From contig DAOTZM010000088.1 in the NCBI GenBank assembly GCA_034434035.1, forward strand, positions 1 to 55,653: DNA of 55,653 nucleotides, given 5' to 3'. Shown here piece by piece: positions 20,723 through 32,275 of the stretch. Below the pieces are notes generated by a model, which was not told where the DNA came from, did no database searches, and saw only the letters and a list, made by a program, of their open reading frames with translations. Position 1 is the stretch's first letter. Each line of letters begins with the position of its first letter. Both the position numbers and the translations under genes were made by a program. The DNA comes from Anaerolineales bacterium. GTDB taxonomy: Bacteria; Chloroflexota; Anaerolineae; Anaerolineales; Villigracilaceae.

Positions 20723-22462
20723 TTACTTCACAACCGGCAATTCCGCGGCAATCCAGGAATTCATACCGCCGTTCAGGTTGCGGACGTTGGTGTAGCCCAG
20801 GGCTTGCAGGTACATCTGGGCAACCGCGCCGCGATGACCGGAAGCGCACAACACGACGATGGGAGCGGCTTTGTCAGCGGGCAGTTGGGCCAGGTTGGCG
20901 GGCAGGTCGTTGACCGGAACCAGCACCGCGCCTGCGATGTGACCTTTTTCGTCCCATTCGGTCTGGCGGCGGACATCGAGCAGGAACGGCACCGTCCCGC
21001 CGGTGATTTCAGCGTTCAGGTCGGGGCCTTTGACCGAGCCAAAGCCGGCGGTGGGCAGGTTGGTCAGGTAGGCATCCAGGTAGGCCAGGCGGATGGCGTC
21101 TACAGCGGGGGCGGTCCCGGCAGTTGGGGCAACGGGAGCGCCTTTTTCGACGGGCAGTTCGGCCTTAACCCAGCCGTTCATGCCGCCGCCCAGGTTGACG
21201 ACATCGGCGTAACCCAGCAACCGCAGGGAAGCCATCGCATACGCGCCGCGGTGGCCGGAGGCGCAAACCACGACAATTTTCGCGTCCTGAGCGGGAAGTT
21301 TGTCCAGATTCTTGAGCAGGTCGCGGATGGGCAGGTTGACCGCGCCGGCGATAAAGCCATTGGCTTCGAGTTCAGACGGTTCGCGCACATCCACAATGAA
21401 AGGCGGATTCTCGGCCAGCATTTCATTCAGTTTTGCGCCGGAGACCGAGTAGAAGCCCTGGTCGGCGGGCAGGTTGGTCAGGAATTCGGCGAAAGTGGCA
21501 GGCCAATCGACCCAACCGACGACCGGCAGTTTGGCCGCTTTCCAGGCGTTCAGGCCGCCGTTCAGGTTGGTGACATCGGTGTAGCCCATCATGCGCAGGG
21601 CCATCAGGGTCATGCCGCCGCGGTGGCCGGAGGCGCAGTAAACGAGGACGGGGGCGTTCTTATCGGCGGGGAATTTATCCAGGCTGGTCAGGAAATCGGG
21701 GAAGGGGATGTGAGTCGCGCCTTCGATATAGCCGTCTTTGTCCCACTCAGCCTGGGAGCGAACATCCACGATAAAAGGCGACTTCTCGATGATGAATTCG
21801 GTGACTTTGTCAGATTTGACGGTGTAAAAGCCCTTATCGGCGGGCAGGCCCGAGAGGAAACCATCCAGGGCATCGAACAGGGCCTTATCTTCGACAATCG
21901 GGCTGCTGATGGCAGCCGCTTCCGCCGGGACGCCCTTTTCAAGCGGCAGGCCAGCCTTTGTCCAGGCGCCAGTTCCACCGCCCAGGTTGACGACGTTGGT
22001 ATAGCCCAACATGCGCAGGGCCATCATCGCCATGCTGCCGCGGTGGCCGGAGGCGCAGTAGATGACAATCTGGTCATCCAGGCCGGGCAGTTTATCCAGG
22101 TTTTGCAGGATACCGCGCACCGGGAGGTTGATTGCGCCTGCGATAAAGCCGTTGGCTTCCAGTTCGGCGGGTTCGCGCACATCGACCAGGAAGACGGGCT
22201 TTTCGGCCAGCTGTTCATTGAGTTTGGCCGCGCTGATGGAGCCGTAGCTCTTATCAGCCGGAACGCTGGCCCAGAACTCGGCGAAAAGGGCCATCAGGTC
22301 CAGTTCCGGCTCAGCGACAACCACCGGTTCTTCGACCACCACAGCCTCAGTGGGGGCCGGCGCCTGGGTGGGAGCGGGAGCCGGGGTAGGCGTGGCGCAG
22401 GCGCCCAGCACGAGGCTGAATAACAGCGCCATGACAACGATAAAGTGAACTTTCTTGGTCAT
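20723..22462 (-). CDS. lipoprotein with four tandem rhodanese (sulfurtransferase) domains
   Basis: Start MTKKVHF at 22462 (AAGGAGAAG SD). Lipobox LVLGAC. Four active-site loops C-A-S-G-H-R-G. Confidence 0.85.
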   Translation of the reverse strand: MTKKVHFIVVMALLFSLVLGACATPTPAPAPTQAPAPTEAVVVEEPVVVAEPELDLMALFAEFWASVPADKSYGSISAAKLNEQLAEKPVFLVDVREPAELEANGFIAGAINLPVRGILQNLDKLPGLDDQIVIYCASGHRGSMAMMALRMLGYTNVVNLGGGTGAWTKAGLPLEKGVPAEAAAISSPIVEDKALFDALDGFLSGLPADKGFYTVKSDKVTEFIIEKSPFIVDVRSQAEWDKDGYIEGATHIPFPDFLTSLDKFPADKNAPVLVYCASGHRGGMTLMALRMMGYTDVTNLNGGLNAWKAAKLPVVGWVDWPATFAEFLTNLPADQGFYSVSGAKLNEMLAENPPFIVDVREPSELEANGFIAGAVNLPIRDLLKNLDKLPAQDAKIVVVCASGHRGAYAMASLRLLGYADVVNLGGGMNGWVKAELPVEKGAPVAPTAGTAPAVDAIRLAYLDAYLTNLPTAGFGSVKGPDLNAEITGGTVPFLLDVRRQTEWDEKGHIAGAVLVPVNDLPANLAQLPADKAAPIVVLCASGHRGAVAQMYLQALGYTNVRNLNGGMNSWIAAELPVVK

Positions 22463-22510
22463 TTTCTTCTCCTTGAAAAAGGCGCGCATACCCTTGCGGG
22501 CACACGACGA

Positions 22511-23650
22511 TTAGGGCGCGCCAATCGCTGGCGGCACTTCAGGGACAATCACAGGCTGGTTGGCCTGGAGTTCCTCAGGGGAGACCTTGTCAGCGGTCAG
22601 GAAAATATCCGGGTTGCCGTGACAGGCGTTGCAGGATGCGTTCTGCGGGGTCTTGCGCTGGATGTTGTGCGGGGTGGCAAAGGCCCAGGTCGGCAGGGCG
22701 TCGAAGTTGGGCAGCAAGTTCTCGCCATAATATTCGTACGAGGTCGGCGAAATCGGGACATGCCGCACGACAACATACTCATAAGGACGATGATAGTTTT
22801 GGAGTGGATTCAACCCGATGAAGAAACTCATGTAACTGCGCTCGGTTTTGAAAAACGGATTGCCGGTTTTCTCGCTGATGGCAACATGGCAGCCATCGCA
22901 ACTCATGTAAGAAACCGAATGGCAGACCTGGCAGGCCAGTTTATCGCCGTGCAGGACGTGCTGGACAACCGGGTCACCCTGCTTGCCGACCGTTTCGTGG
23001 CAGGATTCACACGACGGACTCTGCGCGCCGGAATAACGGTTCGTCACCTGGTAGGCCGCCTGGCTGGTGTCATGACACTGGGTGCAGGCCGCTTCCGAGT
23101 TGTGCATTTCGGCCCCGCTGTGGCAGGAGATACAGTTCATGCGCCCCTGGCGGAAGTGGACATCGCCGGGGATTTCTTCATTCTTGCCGAGATATTCGTT
23201 TCCCACCCGGCTGCCGTGGCAGGCCGTGCAGTTGCGGGTCATGGATGGAGTCTTATTGATGACATGCCCGGAGATGAAACCGCCGCCAACCGAGCCTGGC
23301 TGGCTGATGTGGCAATCGCCGCAGGAGGTGTGGCAGGATGAACAATGGTTGCCAAACATCGTCTCAAGGTCTTTGTGATTTTCAGGCGCACCGCGGGCAT
23401 TCAGGGTATCCCAATAGCCGCTCAGCGAAACGTGCAGGCTCTTCTCGAAGTGTTCAGACTGGTCACCATGACATGCCGCGCAGGTTTCACCCTTGCCGCT
23501 TGGGTCGGCAACCAGGCCAGTGTGAGCAGTTTCCATATCCGGCGACTGCTGGCCTCCGTGACAATAGGTGCAGGCCATCTGACCGTGCGCGGTGGCGAGG
23601 AAGGCCTCGCGCGTGACGAACACTTTCTCCCATGGCTCCAACGGAGCCAC
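22511..23650 (-). CDS. eleven-heme c-type cytochrome lacking its own signal peptide; in frame with the upstream ORF across a UGA
   Basis: 11 CxxCH motifs counted. GTG start is only nominal. The reading frame is continuous with 23660-23923 except for the TGA at 23660-23662. Confidence 0.7.
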   Translation of the reverse strand: MAPLEPWEKVFVTREAFLATAHGQMACTYCHGGQQSPDMETAHTGLVADPSGKGETCAACHGDQSEHFEKSLHVSLSGYWDTLNARGAPENHKDLETMFGNHCSSCHTSCGDCHISQPGSVGGGFISGHVINKTPSMTRNCTACHGSRVGNEYLGKNEEIPGDVHFRQGRMNCISCHSGAEMHNSEAACTQCHDTSQAAYQVTNRYSGAQSPSCESCHETVGKQGDPVVQHVLHGDKLACQVCHSVSYMSCDGCHVAISEKTGNPFFKTERSYMSFFIGLNPLQNYHRPYEYVVVRHVPISPTSYEYYGENLLPNFDALPTWAFATPHNIQRKTPQNASCNACHGNPDIFLTADKVSPEELQANQPVIVPEVPPAIGAP

Positions 23651-25166: not shown

Positions 25167-26462
25167 TTACTTGACTGCGGTCAACCCCTTGGCAAACCCC
25201 TCCGCGCTGGCCTTGATGAAGGACTCGACACCGGTTTTAAGCAAACCGCCCAGGGCCGTCAGGGCTTTTTTGAGTTGGGCTTTTTCGCCTTCTTTGACCA
25301 GGCCGTCCCATTGTTGGGCGAGCAGCCAGTTGCCCAGGTCTTGGTCATCCTGCGGACGGGTGACGCGCAGCAGTTCAGCGGCCAGCCACCAGAGCACGAC
25401 CTGGGCCTGCAGGCGATAGCCGGCGCGGGATTCGGGGCTTGATTCTTGGACGAGGAACCCGCGTTTGCGCAGGTCATCCACTTCGTTACGGTAATCGGGC
25501 AGGGAGGCCAGCAGGTCATCCAGGTCGAATTCGCGGCCCGTGACCAGGCCGGGCATAGAGGACAGGGCGATGATGGCAACCGCTTTGCGGCTTTCAGGCA
25601 GCCAGGTCTGCCAGGTTTCTTTCAGGATTGGGCGGGCGGTATCGTACAGGTCGCGGGCGGCGCATTCCCAGCGCGCCAGGGATTCGGGTTCGCCGTCGTC
25701 ATAGGCGTCGCGCAGGGCGTTGGCGGCGGTTTGGAGCAGGAAGGGCTGGCCCCCGGCGGCGTGGTACAGGAATTCGGCGTCGGCTGCGCTCAAACCCGGC
25801 TGGAGCGTGGCAACCAGTTGCAGGGCGTCCTTTTTCTCGAGCGCGCCAAGCACCACCTGGGTCATGAAGTTGAAGTAGGGCGAGCCGAGGTGGCTGTAGG
25901 CGCTGGTTTTGTCGTTGAGCTGTTCCAGGTTCTGGCGGCTGGCAATCACCAAGGATAGCGAAGTATAGCGGCTGGCCAGCGAGCGCAGGCTGCCATAGAA
26001 CTCGGCCTGGTGCAGGACGGGGTGATTGAGCAGGTTGTCGAACTCATCAATCAGCAAAACCAGCCGCCAGCCAGCGGATTGCATTTGGGCCAGCAGGCGT
26101 TCGAGGCCAAAGGCGCCGAAGCCTTCGCGCTTGCTGGTGTCGTAAGCGGAAAAGATAGCCGGATGGCGGGTTTGCTTGAGTTTTTCAACCAGCGGCTGCA
26201 GGGCGATTTTCCAGAATTGCTGCTGGTCGAAAGATGCCCCCAAAGGCTGGATGTCGATGTACTGGAAGAGCAGGTTGGCGGCCAGTTCGCCATAGCGGGC
26301 TTCGCGCAGGGCCGGGTCTTGCAGGTGATGGAGCAGGCTGGTTTTGCCCATGCGCGGCTCGCCGCAAATGGCCAGCGATTGCCCGCCGTTCGACAGACGG
26401 CTGACAATGCGCCGGATTTCGCGGGCGCGGCCAATGAAGGGAGTGTGAGAGGATGAGTTCAT
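25167..26462 (-). CDS. AAA/STAND-like ATPase, paralogous to the N-terminal module of the DGR target
   Basis: 431 aa. FIGRAREI...LAICGEPRMGKTSLL (Walker A) and LVLLIDEFDNL (Walker B). Same motif order as in 29339-32026. Confidence 0.7.
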   Translation of the reverse strand: MNSSSHTPFIGRAREIRRIVSRLSNGGQSLAICGEPRMGKTSLLHHLQDPALREARYGELAANLLFQYIDIQPLGASFDQQQFWKIALQPLVEKLKQTRHPAIFSAYDTSKREGFGAFGLERLLAQMQSAGWRLVLLIDEFDNLLNHPVLHQAEFYGSLRSLASRYTSLSLVIASRQNLEQLNDKTSAYSHLGSPYFNFMTQVVLGALEKKDALQLVATLQPGLSAADAEFLYHAAGGQPFLLQTAANALRDAYDDGEPESLARWECAARDLYDTARPILKETWQTWLPESRKAVAIIALSSMPGLVTGREFDLDDLLASLPDYRNEVDDLRKRGFLVQESSPESRAGYRLQAQVVLWWLAAELLRVTRPQDDQDLGNWLLAQQWDGLVKEGEKAQLKKALTALGGLLKTGVESFIKASAEGFAKGLTAVK

Positions 26463-26484
26463 GGAGCGTTTCTCCGGTAGAAGA

Positions 26485-26677
26485 ATGTACCACAGGCTTC
26501 AGCCTGTAAATCACTGCCTGAAGGCGGTGCGGATGTACCACAGGCTTCAGCCTGTAAATCACTGCCTGAAGGCAGCGCGGATGTACCACAGGCTTCAGCC
26601 TGTAAATCACCGCCTGAAGGCAGCGCGGATGTACCACAGGCTTCAGCCTGTAAATCGCCGCCTGAAGGCGGCGGTAC
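26485..26677 (+). repeat. REP array: four abutting 48-nt units, each with two hairpins
   Basis: Unit is ATGTACCACAGGCTTCAGCCTGTAAATCACTGCCTGAAGGCGGTGCGG. Hairpins ACAGGC-TTCA-GCCTGT and CACTGCC-TGAA-GGCGGTG. Period 48 nt starting at 26485, 26533, 26581, 26629. Confidence 0.9.
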
Positions 26678-26679
26678 GG

Positions 26680-27324
26680 TTACTGATTCAAAAAGACATA
26701 CGGGTAATCTTGCCAATTTTCAACCAATCCCGCTTTGACCGGGTTGTTGAGAATGTACGAGACAATTCGTTCAAGTTCGCGTTCATCGCGCGCAACATGG
26801 TCGTAGCTCTCGCGCCGCCAAAAAGCGCCCTGCCGATTAAGCATCAGATTGGCCCGGCGCGCGGTTCGTCCTTTGAGCAAAAACAAGGCGTAAGAGAGCG
26901 GCGTTTGCTGTTTGCCGTCTTTGGATGGCGGCGGAAGGGGAATATCTTGCGTATCTACCAGTAGATGGACATGGGTGGACATGACGCAGTACGCGCGCAA
27001 GTGATATTGTTCCGGGTGAAGCAGATGGATTTGCTCGCAAACCATCCGCGCAATTTCTGCTTGCGCAAGCCACCGAGGCCCCTGACCCTGGTCGAGATAG
27101 TCGTCATAGCGTTTGAAAAGTCGTTTCGATAGCCGATACAATTCTTCGCGGCGGTTTGGCTGTTCTTCGGCTTGCAGTTGACGGCGCGCAGATTCATAAT
27201 CCGCCTGAATTTGGGCAACGACCGGTTGGGGCAGGCTGCCTTCCAGTCCAAACGTCACAAAGAAAGTGGCGTTGGCAAGATGCCAGTGAGGCAGGCGGCG
27301 GATAAAGAATTCTTTTTGGGTCAT
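26680..27324 (-). CDS. REP-associated tyrosine transposase (RAYT; IS200/IS605 Y1 HUH family)
   Basis: 214 aa from MTQKEFFIRRLPHW. HUH motif STHVHLLV and catalytic-Tyr region SYDHVARD. Flanked on both sides by the same REP. Confidence 0.85.
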   Translation of the reverse strand: MTQKEFFIRRLPHWHLANATFFVTFGLEGSLPQPVVAQIQADYESARRQLQAEEQPNRREELYRLSKRLFKRYDDYLDQGQGPRWLAQAEIARMVCEQIHLLHPEQYHLRAYCVMSTHVHLLVDTQDIPLPPPSKDGKQQTPLSYALFLLKGRTARRANLMLNRQGAFWRRESYDHVARDERELERIVSYILNNPVKAGLVENWQDYPYVFLNQ

Positions 27325-27330
27325 GAGGTA

Positions 27331-27379
27331 ATGTACCACAGGCTTCAGCCTGTAAGCCGCCGCCTGATGGCGGCGGTAC
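27331..27379 (+). repeat. single REP unit of the 26485 family
   Basis: ATGTACCACAGGCTTCAGCCTGTAAGCCGCCGCCTGATGGCGGCGGTAC, directly upstream of the RAYT start. Confidence 0.9.
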
Positions 27380-27610
27380 AGCGCGGCCAATGAATGGGGG
27401 GTTGGGATGAAAAATTCATGGAACATTTCTCCAAATTTAATGTTGCCGGGCATCAAGGCAGGGCGCAGGATGCCCGGCTTTTGGATATTTGCCACCCCGC
27501 AGGCGGGATGACGGGAATGACCGGCGCTCGATTTCAAAACACGCCCGGGCAATCTTCACTTTTGGCTGCAACTGCCCGGATTCTGGTCGTGAAATTACAA
27601 AGAAATCGGT

Positions 27611-27746
27611 CGGAGGCAACGGAAGCCGACATTGTTGTTGGTATTGTCTGGCGTGTTCCTGTTGCGATTCGAGACGCGCAGGTTGTTATCGTTGTTGTTC
27701 CACCCTGGCCTGACCCGCCAGGGCAGGCGAGCCGCCACGCAGAACC
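27611..27746 (-). other. DGR template repeat (TR), interrupted by a 25-nt insertion (27703-27727)
   Basis: 111 nt colinear with the VR at 29349-29459. All 19 mismatches are at TR adenines on the coding strand. TR encodes AAC/AAT-rich ...WNNNDNNLRVSNRNRNTPDNTNNNVGFRCL. Confidence 0.9.
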
Positions 27747-27766
27747 CGTTCCGGCATTCCCAGGAT

Positions 27767-28111
27767 TTACGGCAGGGAGGGCAGGCTTTTCAGCCAGCCG
27801 CCCAACAGCCTGCCGATTTCCGTCAGAGCATTTACGGCATATTCATATTGTTTGGCGTCCATCAATTTGCGCGCATGACTCAGGCGCAGGTAAAAGCGGG
27901 CTTTGTCCAGTTCCAGGTCAGCCTGGGCCAGGGCCGCGCGGGTTTGCGCGGGACGGGTGGCCGCCAACAGGCATTCGTGAAATCCAAACAGGCTGTCTTC
28001 CAGCCGCTTTGCCAGCCGAAAGCGCTCGCTTTTGGGATAACCCTAGGCGTGATTCAACGTCCAGAGCAGGAAATCATAGGTCTTGCTGAAAATTGGTGAT
28101 TGCTGGGACAC
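27767..28111 (-). pseudogene. avd: DGR accessory variability determinant (Avd, four-helix-bundle family) with an in-frame TAG
   Basis: GTG at 28111 with GAAGGAGG SD. Reads SPIFSKTYDFLLWTLNHA-TAG-GYPKSERFRLAKRLEDSL...EIGRLLGGWLKSL. The TAG is at 28043-28045. The gene overlaps the RT 3' end by 38 nt. Confidence 0.75.
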
Positions 28112-29198
28112 GCGAGCCTCCTTCGGGGGACACAAACCGAATTTCACGAAAAATGGACTGGCGCAGGCGCCAGGTATCGCCATGCGCGGCATGGGCCACC
28201 CAGGCCTGGACGCGGGCTTTGACCGCTTTTTGCTCAATTTGGCCGGCATGGTAACGCGCGGCCAGCGCCTTCAATCGCCGCCGGGCGTGGACAACTTTAC
28301 GACGTTTGAGCCGCCTGTGGTCTGGGAAGACCCGGAAGCCCAAAAACGGGAGGCCAATGCGCGTGGGGCGCGGCTGGGCGCTGTTTTCATGCACGGTCAG
28401 GCGCAAACCGGCCAGGAATTGGATGACCTGCCCGCGCCAGCGATTTAATTCTGCCTTGTCATTTGAAAAAAGCAGCATATCATCGACATAGCGAACATAG
28501 CCCTGGCACTTGAGCGTACGTTTGATGAACTGGTCGAGCGGGTTGAGATAGACATTCGCCAAAAACTGGCTGGTGAGATTTCCGATTGGCAAACCGCGCG
28601 GCTTATTGATGGCAAACAAATCATCACCGGGAAAATAGACCGGCTCATATTCTTCCTGCAAAACGCCCTCGCCGCTGGCAAGGATGAGCCGGCACAAACC
28701 CAGGATTTTCTCGTTTTGGATGTTCTTTTGCAAGTTTGCCAGCAAAACAGCATGGTCAATGGACGGGAAAAACTGGCGCGCATCCAGCGGCAGGACGCAG
28801 GCAAAACGGCGCATATAGTGGGCGCAGCGGTCGAGCGCGGCATGGGTGCCCTTGCCTTTGCGGTTGGCGTAGGTATCGAAGATGAATTTGCGCTCAAAAA
28901 TTGGCTCGATGATGTTCACCAGGGCATGATGCACAACCCGGTCACGAAAGGGCGCGGCGGAAATCAGGCGTTTTTTGGGGTCATGCACATAGAAACTGAC
29001 ATACTGGCCCGGCTGGTAACGGCCTTCGCGCAGTTCAGATTGTAATTGGGGCAGTTCGTTTTCGAGGTTATATTCAAAGCCTGCCACTGAAGCGCGGCCG
29101 CGCCGGCCTTTGGCGGCTTTTTTGTAGGCCGAAAGCAGGTTTTCAAACGAAATCAGCCGTTCCCACAGCCAGGGGTCTTCGCTTTGACGCCTGTTCAC
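28074..29198 (-). CDS. DGR reverse transcriptase
   Basis: 374 aa from the GTG at 29198 (AAGGAGG SD). ISAAPFRDRVVHHAL, DGR-specific LPIGNLTSQ, and catalytic YVDD. A TR/VR pair is adjacent. Confidence 0.9.
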   Translation of the reverse strand: MNRRQSEDPWLWERLISFENLLSAYKKAAKGRRGRASVAGFEYNLENELPQLQSELREGRYQPGQYVSFYVHDPKKRLISAAPFRDRVVHHALVNIIEPIFERKFIFDTYANRKGKGTHAALDRCAHYMRRFACVLPLDARQFFPSIDHAVLLANLQKNIQNEKILGLCRLILASGEGVLQEEYEPVYFPGDDLFAINKPRGLPIGNLTSQFLANVYLNPLDQFIKRTLKCQGYVRYVDDMLLFSNDKAELNRWRGQVIQFLAGLRLTVHENSAQPRPTRIGLPFLGFRVFPDHRRLKRRKVVHARRRLKALAARYHAGQIEQKAVKARVQAWVAHAAHGDTWRLRQSIFREIRFVSPEGGSRVPAITNFQQDL

Positions 29199-29280: not shown

Positions 29281-29338
29281 AAGACAGGAGCGCAGAACGC
29301 CCTTCGGGCGCAGAAAATCAGAAACCAGAATACCAGAA

Positions 29339-32026
29339 TTAAGGCGAGCGGAGGCAACGGAAGCCGACACTGACGACGGTATCGCCCGGCGTGAGCCAGA
29401 AGCGAAGCGAGACGCGCAGGTAGTTATCGTAGTTGACCCACGAGCCGCCACGCAGAACCTTACTGGAGCCATTTTCGGGCCCGGTCGGGTTTTCGAGCGC
29501 GCCGCTCGGGTAATTGCCGTACCAATCGCCGACCCACTCCCAGACATTACCAGCCATGTCGTACAGGCCATAGCCGTTGGGTTGGAAGGTCTTAACGTCA
29601 ATCGGCGAGTCGGGAAGACAGGGGCCATATTGCGCGCCGTTCTTCGCGCCGTGAGTACATACCGGGGCTTCGCCGCCCCAGGGGTATGCTTTGCCAGCCA
29701 ACCCGCCGCGCGCGGCGTATTCCCACTCGGCTTCGGTGGGTAAACGAACGGTTGTTGAGCCTGTCGGAACACCGCCAGCCCATTCGCAGTAGGCGTTGGC
29801 CTTGTTCCAATCCACATAAACCACCGGGGAATTGGGGCTGCTGTTGTAATATCCCAAGTCAGAAGGCGGCTGACAGACCCCGGCATCCACGCACTTTTTG
29901 TACATGTCGTTGGTGACTTCGTGCTCGTCCATCCAGAAGGCATCCAGCCTCACGCTGTGAACCGGCTTTTCATCACTACCGCCATTTTCCGAACCCATCT
30001 GGAAGGTACCGCCTGGAACATAAACCATCACCATGCCATCCGCTTCGCGCGGGGCGGATGCAGCGCCAGGGTGGGGGGTGTTGGTCGGGGTGGGGGTAAA
30101 GGTGGGGGTGATGGTTGGAGTCTGCGAGGGGGTCAGGGTGATGGTGGGCGTCAGGGTGGGGGTGGGCGTCAGGGTGGGGGTAAAAGTAGGGGCAAAGGTA
30201 CCAAAGACGCCAACGCGGGCATCGACGGCGGTCTGGAAGGCCGCGCCGCCAAAGGATGCCGAGAAAATGAGCAGCAAAATCACAAACGTGCCGCTCAGGC
30301 CGGCCAGGGCCAGGTTGTTGCGCAGCCAAATGCGCCAGGCGGGCGGGCGCTGTTTATCTTCGCGCGCGGCGCGGGCCAGCAGGTCGGCGGCGCTTTCGGC
30401 GTCTTTGCCGCGCTCGTAGGCGTAACCGGGCTGGCGCGCGACCGCTTTTTGCAGGAATTCCACCGCCCGCTGCCACTCGCCGCGCTGGAGGGCCTGGCGG
30501 CCTTCTAGGTAGTTGAAGGCCAGTTCTTTCTCTTCGCGCTCGAACTGCCTGATTTTCTCGACCCCGGCGCGGGCTTCGGGGTTGCCGCCATCCAGCCCAA
30601 GCACTTTTTCATAGAGCGCCAGGCGGGCGGCATCGTCACCGGCGGCCTGCGCTTGCTGTAAATAGACCTGCGCCAGGCGCGGGCGGGCCACCGAGGGCGC
30701 AAATTCGAGCAGTTTTTCCAGTTTTTCGCGGGCTTCGGCCAGCCGCCCGCCGCCAATCAGAATTTCGGCCAGCATTTCGTTGGCGCGCAGGTGGTTCGGG
30801 TTGATGCCCACCGCCTGTTCCAACAGATTTTCGGCCCGTTCCAGGCTGCCCTGGGCGTAAAAAGCCTCGGCAGCCTGGAAGAGATTATCGGCGGCCGGCA
30901 GGATTCGGTCGAGTTCGGTCTGGGTGCGGCTGAGCGGGTGGTATTTCGCCAGCCAGCGGCGCAGCAACTCGACCCGGAAAATGTGGCCGCCATCGGCCGG
31001 TTCGAGGATGTCCCAATCGGCAAGCATTTGGGGCGCGTTTTGCAGTTCACGAATCAGGATGCGCACGCCGCTCTCGCGCAGGATGTGTTCGAGGCGAACT
31101 TCATCTACCACTTCGCGCCCGGCCCCGGCCAGGGCAGCGCTGACGACTTTCTCCGCCGGCCCCAGCCCGTTCCACAACCATTCGAGCATGTTGCGGCTGG
31201 AATCGAGGGTCGGTTCGACGGCTTCTTCAATCATCTGCGCTGTGACCTTGGGCGGCGCATCCGGCTCTTCGTCGTAGGCGCTCTCCCAGACCTGCGAACA
31301 GAGGGCCTGGGTCAGGTAGGCGTGGCCGCGCGTCAGGTCGTAGAGCGCCTCGAGGGCTTTTTGCGGCCAGTACAGGCTTTCGTTCTGCTCTGAAAGCCGC
31401 GCCAGTTTGAAGGTGTCTTCCCTTGCGAGCAGCGAGACGCGCTTCGATTCAACGCCCTTGAAGACCGAGAGCGCCAGGCTGCTCAGGTCGGTGATGTTGC
31501 GCCCCAAGACAAAGACGAATTGCAGGCGCAGCGGGTCGAGGGCCAGCAATTCGCGCAGGTAGGGAAAAAACTCCCTGGCGGCGCTGCCCGTTTGCGGGTC
31601 GGCCAGCACGTCGAACTCGTCGAAGAGCAGCACCAGCGACTGGCCGCCGCCCAAAGCCTCCAGGCGCTGTTTCATCCAGACGCGGAAGGGTTCGGTATCC
31701 GCGTTCGAGAGAGTCGGCGCGGGCCAGCCGAGCGTATCCGCAATTTTGCGGGCCAGTTCGGCCAGCAGGCGCGGCAGGGGCCAGGCGGCTTTGTCTTGCA
31801 AATCAAAATAAACCGCGTGGTAAGGCCCCTCGGCGGGCAGGCGCGCGGTCAGGTATTGCAGCATGGAGGTCTTGCCGATGCGCCGCTGGCCGTAGAGGGT
31901 GATGGCGTTTTTGGCCGGGTTATTCAGCGCGCGCAGCACGTCGCGCAGCGCGTCGGCGCGGCCCACGAAGGCGGCGCTGTTGCCGACCGGGTCGCCGGCG
32001 ATGTAGGGGTTGAGGGGGATGGGCAT
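29339..32026 (-). CDS. DGR target: STAND-like ATPase, TPR, TM helix, Thr/Pro linker, FGE-sulfatase (C-type lectin fold) domain
   Basis: 895 aa from [15 protein letters not shown] at 32026. Walker [13 protein letters not shown], Walker [15 protein letters not shown]-like repeats, then [21 protein letters not shown]. (T/P)-rich linker, then FGE-type motifs ([38 protein letters not shown]). Confidence 0.85.
29349..29459 (-). other. DGR variable repeat (VR) at the 3' end of the target gene
   Basis: Encodes [36 protein letters not shown]. Differs from the TR only at TR-adenine positions. Confidence 0.9.
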
Positions 32027-32062
32027 ACCTGGCAATCTCCATGTGTACCGCAGGGATACATG

Positions 32063-32158
32063 CGTACCGCAGGCTTCAGCCTGTGGATTCACCGCCTGAA
32101 GGCAGCGCGGATGTACCGCAGGCTTCAGCCTGTAAAGCACCGCCTGAAGACAGGGGTA
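32063..32158 (+). repeat. two REP units of the 26485 family (plus a degenerate partial copy upstream)
   Basis: CGTACCGCAGGCTTCAGCCTGTGGATTCACCGCCTGAAGGCAGCGCGG and ATGTACCGCAGGCTTCAGCCTGTAAAGCACCGCCTGAAGACAGGGGTAC. Confidence 0.85.
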
Positions 32159-32275
32159 CTTTTCATGCAAAAGTATACAACAAAATCGAAAAGTGAAGCC
32201 CTCCCCGCCGGCGCGCGTTTAACATGGCAGGCGCGATACGATGGAAAATCGGGTATACTTTCCCCGCTTAAGCCT

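Follow-up and report, generated by a model that had tools for sequence, protein, structure and literature searches.

Whether a DGR can go on rewriting its target once its template repeat (TR) carries a palindrome that the VR lacks is the question raised by a locus on contig DAOTZM010000088.1 (assembly GCA_034434035.1) of an Anaerolineales bacterium. The sequence studied was the whole 55,653-nt stretch, referred to here as the window, with the DGR on its minus strand. The features on which the argument depends are collected in Table 1, together with the comparable inserts of related loci.

Along the minus strand the locus runs from the target gene through the reverse transcriptase (RT) gene, the bAvd gene and the TR to the spacer, a layout common to all of the loci fetched for comparison. 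The RT matches Pfam RVT_1 (E 2.6e-18), and its LPIGNLTSQ and VDD motifs are invariant in an alignment that includes the window; its homologues number 8000, the closest of which come from Anaerolineales (Chloroflexota) assemblies. The target ORF (32170..29339, with an uncertain start) ends in an FGE-sulfatase domain (E 1.1e-59, residues 715-941 of 943) that holds the VR, the 3' end of which lies 10 nt before the stop codon. Gapped TR/VR alignments were made with A-tolerant, gap-strict scoring, and they place the TR (27746..27611) and the VR (29459..29349) in register with no gap other than the 25 nt of the insertion. The two repeats are 80% identical over the roughly 92-93 nt that lie 3' of the insertion, all of the mismatches (19/19) fall at TR adenines, and the IMH of the VR (...CCTCCGCTCG) stands against an IMH* in the TR (...CCTCCGACCG), a contrast that the relatives show equally. 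With the exception of the interrupted accessory gene, the element in the window has the sequence hallmarks of a DGR.

Among the known systems closest to this locus are the DGR of Bordetella phage BPP-1 and those of clade 5D. As in BPP-1, the VR differences are A-specific and are accompanied by a bAvd gene and an IMH/IMH* pair; the gene order of the window (target, RT, avd, TR) is, by contrast, unlike that of BPP-1. In multicellular bacteria, filamentous Chloroflexi among them, DGRs of clade 5D diversify "antigen sensors" of the STAND-NTPase/C-type-lectin type (Doré et al., bioRxiv 10.1101/2023.09.22.558884), and the window resembles them in its STAND ATPase target with a C-terminal FGE/CLec domain, its Anaerolineales host and its nSTAND neighbour. 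A G+C-rich inverted repeat (GCGCCC GAA GGGCGT; window 29297-29311, minus strand) is found about 38 nt downstream of the VR and may be the counterpart of the BPP-1 target-recognition hairpin.

Table 1. Coordinates of the DGR, of the neighbouring RAYT/REP block and of linker inserts in related loci (feature, position, strand, remarks; window positions unless a locus is named).
Target gene	29339..32170	-	943 aa; STAND-type ATPase, TPR, PT-rich linker, C-terminal FGE-sulfatase (C-type-lectin fold)
VR	29349..29459	-	3' end of target gene; without the 25 nt
DGR reverse transcriptase	28074..29192	-	372 aa; apparently intact; LPIGNLTSQ and YVDD present
bAvd accessory gene	27767..28111	-	PF22296, E 1.6e-16; GTG start, not ATG; in-frame TAG at 28045..28043
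Upstream strand of predicted cPRT-Stop duplex	27751..27764	-	CCTGGGAATGCCGG; directly after avd stop codon
TR 5' invariant block	27728..27746	-	GGTTCTGCGTGGCGGCTCG; zero adenines; 19/19 match to VR
TR-only insertion	27703..27727	-	25 nt; minus strand CCTGCCCTGGCGGGTCAGGCCAGGG; 7-bp stem, 7-nt loop
Mutable TR part, adenine-rich	27611..27702	-	3' end IMH*-like ...CCTCCGACCG; 19 A-to-N differences from VR
Spacer (Sp) RNA region	27420..27610	-	3' of TR; sequence kept in relatives; 3' limit approximate
Spacer strand pairing with 27751-27764	27512..27525	-	GCCGGTCATTCCCG; followed by stem-loop and A-rich run
RAYT-like gene	27324..26680	-	NCBIfam REP_Tyr_transpos, E 4.5e-20, 72 bits (cut-off 80)
48-nt double-hairpin REP-like units	26485-26677 (four tandem), 27331-27379 (one)		flank RAYT-like gene
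L003/L004/L005 insert	L003:1541-1558		18 nt CCCCATTTGGGGGTAAGC; three independent assemblies; VR not on L003 contig
L099 insert	L099:3899-3916		18 nt CCCCGAAAGCGGGCAAGC; VR without hairpin
L012 insert	L012:5458-5471		14 nt CCTTTGGTGGGCAA; VR without hairpin

The original prediction, made from the sequence of the window, had located the TR-only insertion exactly to the base. It reads CCCTGGCCTGACCCGCCAGGGCAGG on the plus strand and separates the 19-nt 5' block from the remaining TR, falling between the TCG (Ser) and TGG (Trp) codons of an encoded RGGSW, with one G of ambiguous placement at the junction; its 3' edge lies 3-4 nt before the first AAC. As had also been pointed out, the length is not a multiple of 3, so that the 25 nt cannot stay in frame and copying them into the VR would frameshift the target. 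The 7-bp inverted repeat reported within the insertion (CCCTGGC/GCCAGGG) is real and folds with -14.1 kcal/mol when the insert is taken alone, although a perfect stem of equal or greater length arises in 4.5% of shuffled inserts and an equal or lower energy in 11% (22/200 for the 25-mer alone). Given its G+C-rich composition, the stem thus exceeds chance only modestly. The linker without the insert folds too, into a small stem-loop (GUUCUGCGGG/CUCGUGGAAC, -13.8 kcal/mol, z -2.9), and in the window the insert is predicted to pair partly with the 5' block, so that this native stem-loop grows into a stem of about 19 bp (-28.7 kcal/mol). As the source of the insert, a snap-back event with the neighbouring 5' arm as template was considered and rejected, the similarity being only partial (GGCGGGTCAGGCCA vs GGCGAGCCGCCA). 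An Rfam scan of positions 26400-28200 returned weak chance matches and nothing else.

Comparison with related loci establishes which of the two repeats has changed. The sample comprised the loci of the closest RT homologues and 80 genome loci (100 loci fetched). An examination of related TRs had been proposed along with the original prediction, and those of L001 (RT 92% identical), L006 (81%), L007 (77%), L010, L098 and L100 are all uninterrupted. Among some 50 distinct TRs that share the skeleton ...TGC-GNGGNGGNTC-GTGGAAC..., extra sequence between GGCTC and GTGG is present in the window only, and the RGGSW-type motif is contiguous in 120/120 related target proteins. Because the TRs of the nearest relatives are uninterrupted and the motif is contiguous in these 120 targets, the TR must have gained the 25 nt rather than the VR having lost them; the insertion is lineage-specific and derived. 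Scans with the TR pattern gave no match in viral contigs and five loci in metagenomes, none of them interrupted.

The assertion accompanying the original prediction, that interrupted TRs had not been described, went too far. TR and VR differ in length in 25/372 DGRs (7%), mostly by small amounts beside AAC, which has been ascribed to slippage (Wu et al. 2018, PMC5758913). The window shares with these cases a difference in TR and VR length, here one that is not a multiple of 3. In contrast to the slippage indels, which are short and lie at or within AAC repeats, the insert is a non-repetitive 25-nt palindrome placed in the invariant 5' block and derived in the TR, and it is a different kind of event from the catalogued length differences. 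Engineered TRs provide a second comparison, since tags or introns that Guo et al. placed in the BPP-1 TR in 2008 were reportedly transferred to the VR. In a reconstruction of the BPP-1 DGR in E. coli, the VR likewise received the 18 nt of a kanR repair reporter that only the TR contained (PMC12875486). The window resembles such constructs in having extra TR sequence with VR homology on both sides but departs from them in that its insert is not in the VR.

The position of the insertion is best understood from the structure of the DGR RNA. In BPP-1, the spacer forms a duplex, the "cPRT Stop", with a segment immediately 5' of the TR, and the cDNA ends just before this duplex (Handa et al., bioRxiv 10.1101/2023.10.23.563531). 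The RNA of the window is predicted to be organized in the same way, with an upstream strand that pairs with the spacer and is followed there by a stem-loop and an A-rich run, and with TR/VR homology that begins 4-5 nt after the Stop strand, where the BPP-1 cDNA ends. The Stop strands were chosen by a motif-anchored duplex search, which favours pairing, and with this choice 93.9% of cells in the 12-bp duplex are paired across 15 distinct versions. Both sides have changed in 6/12 pairs, none of 500 shuffles reaches the score, and strands slid out of register pair in 30-56% of cells; the predicted duplex is backed by covariation. A whole-length RNAduplex comparison of the upstream sequence with the spacer was uninformative.

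Counted from where the Stop strand ends up to the Trp codon, the linker is 22-23 nt long in at least 13 lineages, compared with 48 nt in the window, 41 nt in L003, 41 nt in L099 and 37 nt in L012. The insertion therefore lies in a linker of normally fixed length, which joins the Stop strand to the first mutable AAC codon. The window differs from BPP-1 in having a hairpin that parts the mutable template from the Stop strand; no such element is described for the BPP-1 RNA, and our literature search met with no account of hairpins in the Stop-to-template linker. The surroundings of the Stop strand vary in other respects. In L013, L015, L019, L024, L026, L077 and L095 a strong stem-loop, often with a GNRA- or UUCG-like tetraloop, follows the avd stop codon and precedes the Stop strand (the stem of L026 has 12-13 bp); the closest relatives of the window do without it. 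In L006, L007, L010, L098 and L099 the avd ORF runs on into the TR (133-140 aa), so that the end of avd, the Stop strand and the start of the TR overlap.

What the insertion should do to the element depends on whether the 5' block is ordinarily rewritten. In 47/53 related loci the 5' block of the TR equals that of its own VR, despite 24 sequence versions, which indicates that this block is normally overwritten from the TR and hence that conversion tracts and cDNA normally pass the insertion site. With the 5' block co-converted as a rule, the 25 nt would be expected in the VR, along with a frameshift. A full-length cDNA made from the interrupted TR would transfer the 25 nt to the target, whose reading frame would shift at GGS|W, in the lectin fold. 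A VR that is free of the insertion, next to a 19-nt block that is still perfect, would then mean either that the insertion is recent and has been followed by no successful full-length event, or that such events are lost. From these patterns we infer that the cDNA would read through the hairpin, that the segment would be transferred into the VR and that the element is at present inactive.

A second lesion of the locus, overlooked in the original prediction, is found in avd. Codon 23 of this gene is TAG, compared with GAG (Glu) in its homologues of L001, L003 and L006, and three adjacent codons at the site differ from L001 (HA*G vs HTES). The gene, which has 114 aa in the window as in L001 and L003, is recognizable, but with this stop codon it does not have the sequence of a functional bAvd. 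The rest of avd aligns without gaps, and its codon differences from L001 (28 synonymous, 9 non-synonymous) show that it was under purifying selection until recently. Recoding of TAG was ruled out as an explanation for the stop, as other long ORFs in the window end with TAG. Nonsense mutations in avd abolish the activity of the BPP-1 DGR in E. coli (PMC12875486). Over the locus as a whole, the TR and Sp region of the window (27420-27766) is 94.5% identical to that of L001 (L001:1911-2225), compared with 89-90% for the RT and avd genes; between these two loci the DGR RNA is conserved more strongly than its partner proteins.

The balance of this evidence tips toward a DGR whose rewriting activity ceased recently, leaving the VR allele frozen through early decay or a "lock". 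This was the first of the three explanations offered, without preference, with the original prediction, and it fits best because the insertion is derived, the 19 nt upstream of it still match the VR perfectly and avd carries the TAG. The reading also agrees with what is known of the clade, in which stem-loop repeats and mobile elements often bring about the degeneration of DGR loci (Doré et al., bioRxiv 10.1101/2023.09.22.558884). Around the DGR of the window, too, there are mobile-element and stem-loop repeats, and parts of the DGR are degenerate; a RAYT/REP block beside the spacer fits such transposon-driven decay. The damage described in clade 5D consists of RT or TR regions replaced by MITE-like arrays or transposons, whereas the window has a single 25-nt hairpin in an otherwise intact TR. 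Doubt is cast on a locked element by the RT, TR adenines, spacer and target ORF, all of which are intact, and by the fact that both lesions come from one assembled sequence, in which the TAG, a single-base change, might reflect strain variation or an error. Should the element indeed be locked, the locus would be an ordinary snapshot of DGR shutdown that marks when a diversified receptor allele became fixed. Among uninterrupted relatives, VRs are identical across samples or assemblies in L001/L002 and in L007/L008/L009/L014, and these cellular DGRs look quiescent at the consensus level, so that VR identity between samples says nothing about whether an element is active.

It had also been suggested that cDNA synthesis or homing ends at the hairpin, and this proposal fared better in relatives than in the window itself. 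Its general form is that the hairpin is tolerated or useful, either because the RT pauses or ends there or because only conversions with a downstream junction survive, with diversification confined to the 3' 92 nt and the hairpin serving as the template's new 5' limit; for the window we regard it as unlikely, if far from negligible. The relevant evidence comes from hairpins in the same linker of other lineages. The inserts of L003 (with L004 and L005), L099 and L012 follow directly on ...TGC, 10 nt upstream of the window's site, and are unrelated in sequence to that of the window. They form G+C-rich stems with adjacent bases and are mutually alignable (12/18 between L003 and L099), and the RTs of the three lineages, which are not sisters, are 67-70% identical. 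Either one old insertion followed by patchy loss or transfer, or a site-specific recurrent process, could account for these hairpins; all three may go back to one event, which weighs against a tolerated hairpin.

RT and avd are intact in all three of these lineages, and the TR/VR mismatches fall at A in 13/14 cases in L012 and in 21/21 in L099. In the latter two loci the TR matches the VR from the 3' base of the hairpin onward, and the TR further upstream has diverged from the VR. Thus, a linker hairpin is not lethal in itself; it is compatible with a live-looking DGR, of which it then appears to mark the 5' limit of conversion. For the window, L012 and L099 the VR is confirmed to lack the stem-forming linker segment, and a protein search with the target C-terminus for the VR of the L003 lineage gave no close orthologue. 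Across about 330 nt of TR and spacer in ten lineages, indels of at least 10 nt occur at these two linker sites only, and the pooled inserts form stems more often than do shuffled inserts. In L003 and L099 the insert length is divisible by 3, and transfer to the VR would add PPFGGK or PPKAGK to the target (for L003, VL-PPFGGK-RGGSW). In the more distant L023, which aligns less cleanly, a hairpin insert of 22 nt occupies a third position.

The spacing makes a tolerated hairpin hard to accept for the window. Between its hairpin and the first mutable codon there are just the 4 nt GTGG, where L012 and L099 have 14-16 invariant nt; a cDNA that ended at the hairpin would keep almost no fixed 3' anchor. 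The nonsense codon in avd speaks against it as well, as does the 100% identity of the upstream 19 nt to the VR, which makes the event young and not yet tried by time. A broader claim would be that the Stop-to-template linker is a recurrent site at which the DGR RNAs of this clade gain and keep functional G+C-rich stem-loops, and that the hairpin of the window is a repositioned boundary rather than damage. We consider this speculative and distinctly unlikely; as a possibility, such stem-loops might make the RT pause or end and so set the 5' end of the tract, or they might shield the cDNA 3' end from exonucleases (ExoI). The comparative pattern of hairpins is nevertheless the part worth pursuing, even with the window's own feature most likely being damage. 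How the cDNA or conversion tract acquires its 5' end is a poorly understood step of mutagenic retrohoming, for which L012 and L099 are natural test cases, and linker hairpins suggest a simple design rule for restricting the edited window in engineered DGRs.

Length differences of other kinds were seen in several related loci. In L088 the VR has 19 nt more than the TR, in the form of a tandem-like copy; it is also the longer repeat in L069 (by 58 nt), in L095 (by 21 nt) and, near the IMH, in L026 (by 19 nt), and in L077 the TR is the longer of the two by 5 nt.

A source of the 25 nt compatible with a locked DGR would be a small mobile palindromic element (REP- or MITE-like), placed for example by the nearby RAYT, and we judge this improbable. 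The RAYT-like gene is 380 nt away and adjoins arrays of 48-nt double hairpins, the whole block sitting between the spacer and the neighbouring nSTAND gene; in relatives the block is absent and the spacer abuts the nSTAND gene. MITE-like stem-loops are, moreover, known to degrade DGR parts in the clade (Doré et al., bioRxiv 10.1101/2023.09.22.558884). The insert shares with REP/RAYT systems a short G+C-rich hairpin and the proximity of a RAYT-like gene and REP-like arrays, but it is unlike the local REP units in sequence and unlike REP elements generally in being single-copy in the window. No further copy is present in the 55 kb of the window with up to 3 mismatches allowed, the 25-mer is absent from the 100 related loci fetched, direct and inverted k-mer matches to a possible donor in the window are at chance level (a 9-mer shared with sequence 59 nt upstream is not significant), and any target-site duplication is at most 1 nt. 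Many copies of CCCTGGCGGGTCAGGCCAGGG in the genome would indicate a mobile REP-like element, and their absence, together with that of a second VR, a local event. Near the block, a 37-nt direct repeat (26439-26475 vs 27396-27432, 73% identical) includes the nSTAND gene start and looks like a duplication of that start on both sides of the RAYT/REP insertion. Further REP-like copies are found at the 5' edge of the target ORF (32063-32159).

An assembly or sequencing artefact is another explanation for the insertion, and the lineage is represented by one assembled sequence, with no identical contig found and a best RT match of 92%. Both flanks are, however, perfectly colinear with the TRs of relatives, a clean, non-repetitive 25-nt palindrome is atypical of consensus errors, and an analogous insert recurs in the three independent assemblies L003, L004 and L005, all of which makes an artefact highly improbable. 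The remaining proposal, that a second cognate VR elsewhere in the genome holds the 25 nt, can scarcely be credited: some DGRs, including members of the clade, do have several targets (Doré et al., bioRxiv 10.1101/2023.09.22.558884), but the window contains neither a second VR nor a second FGE-type domain, the segment would not be in frame, and an RGGSW-type motif broken by such a segment is seen in none of the 120 related targets.

Elsewhere in the window, four imperfect repeats of about 400 nt (20723-22489, minus strand) encode a protein with four rhodanese domains, and a multihaem cytochrome gene (22511-23650) adjoins it; neither gene is tied to the DGR.
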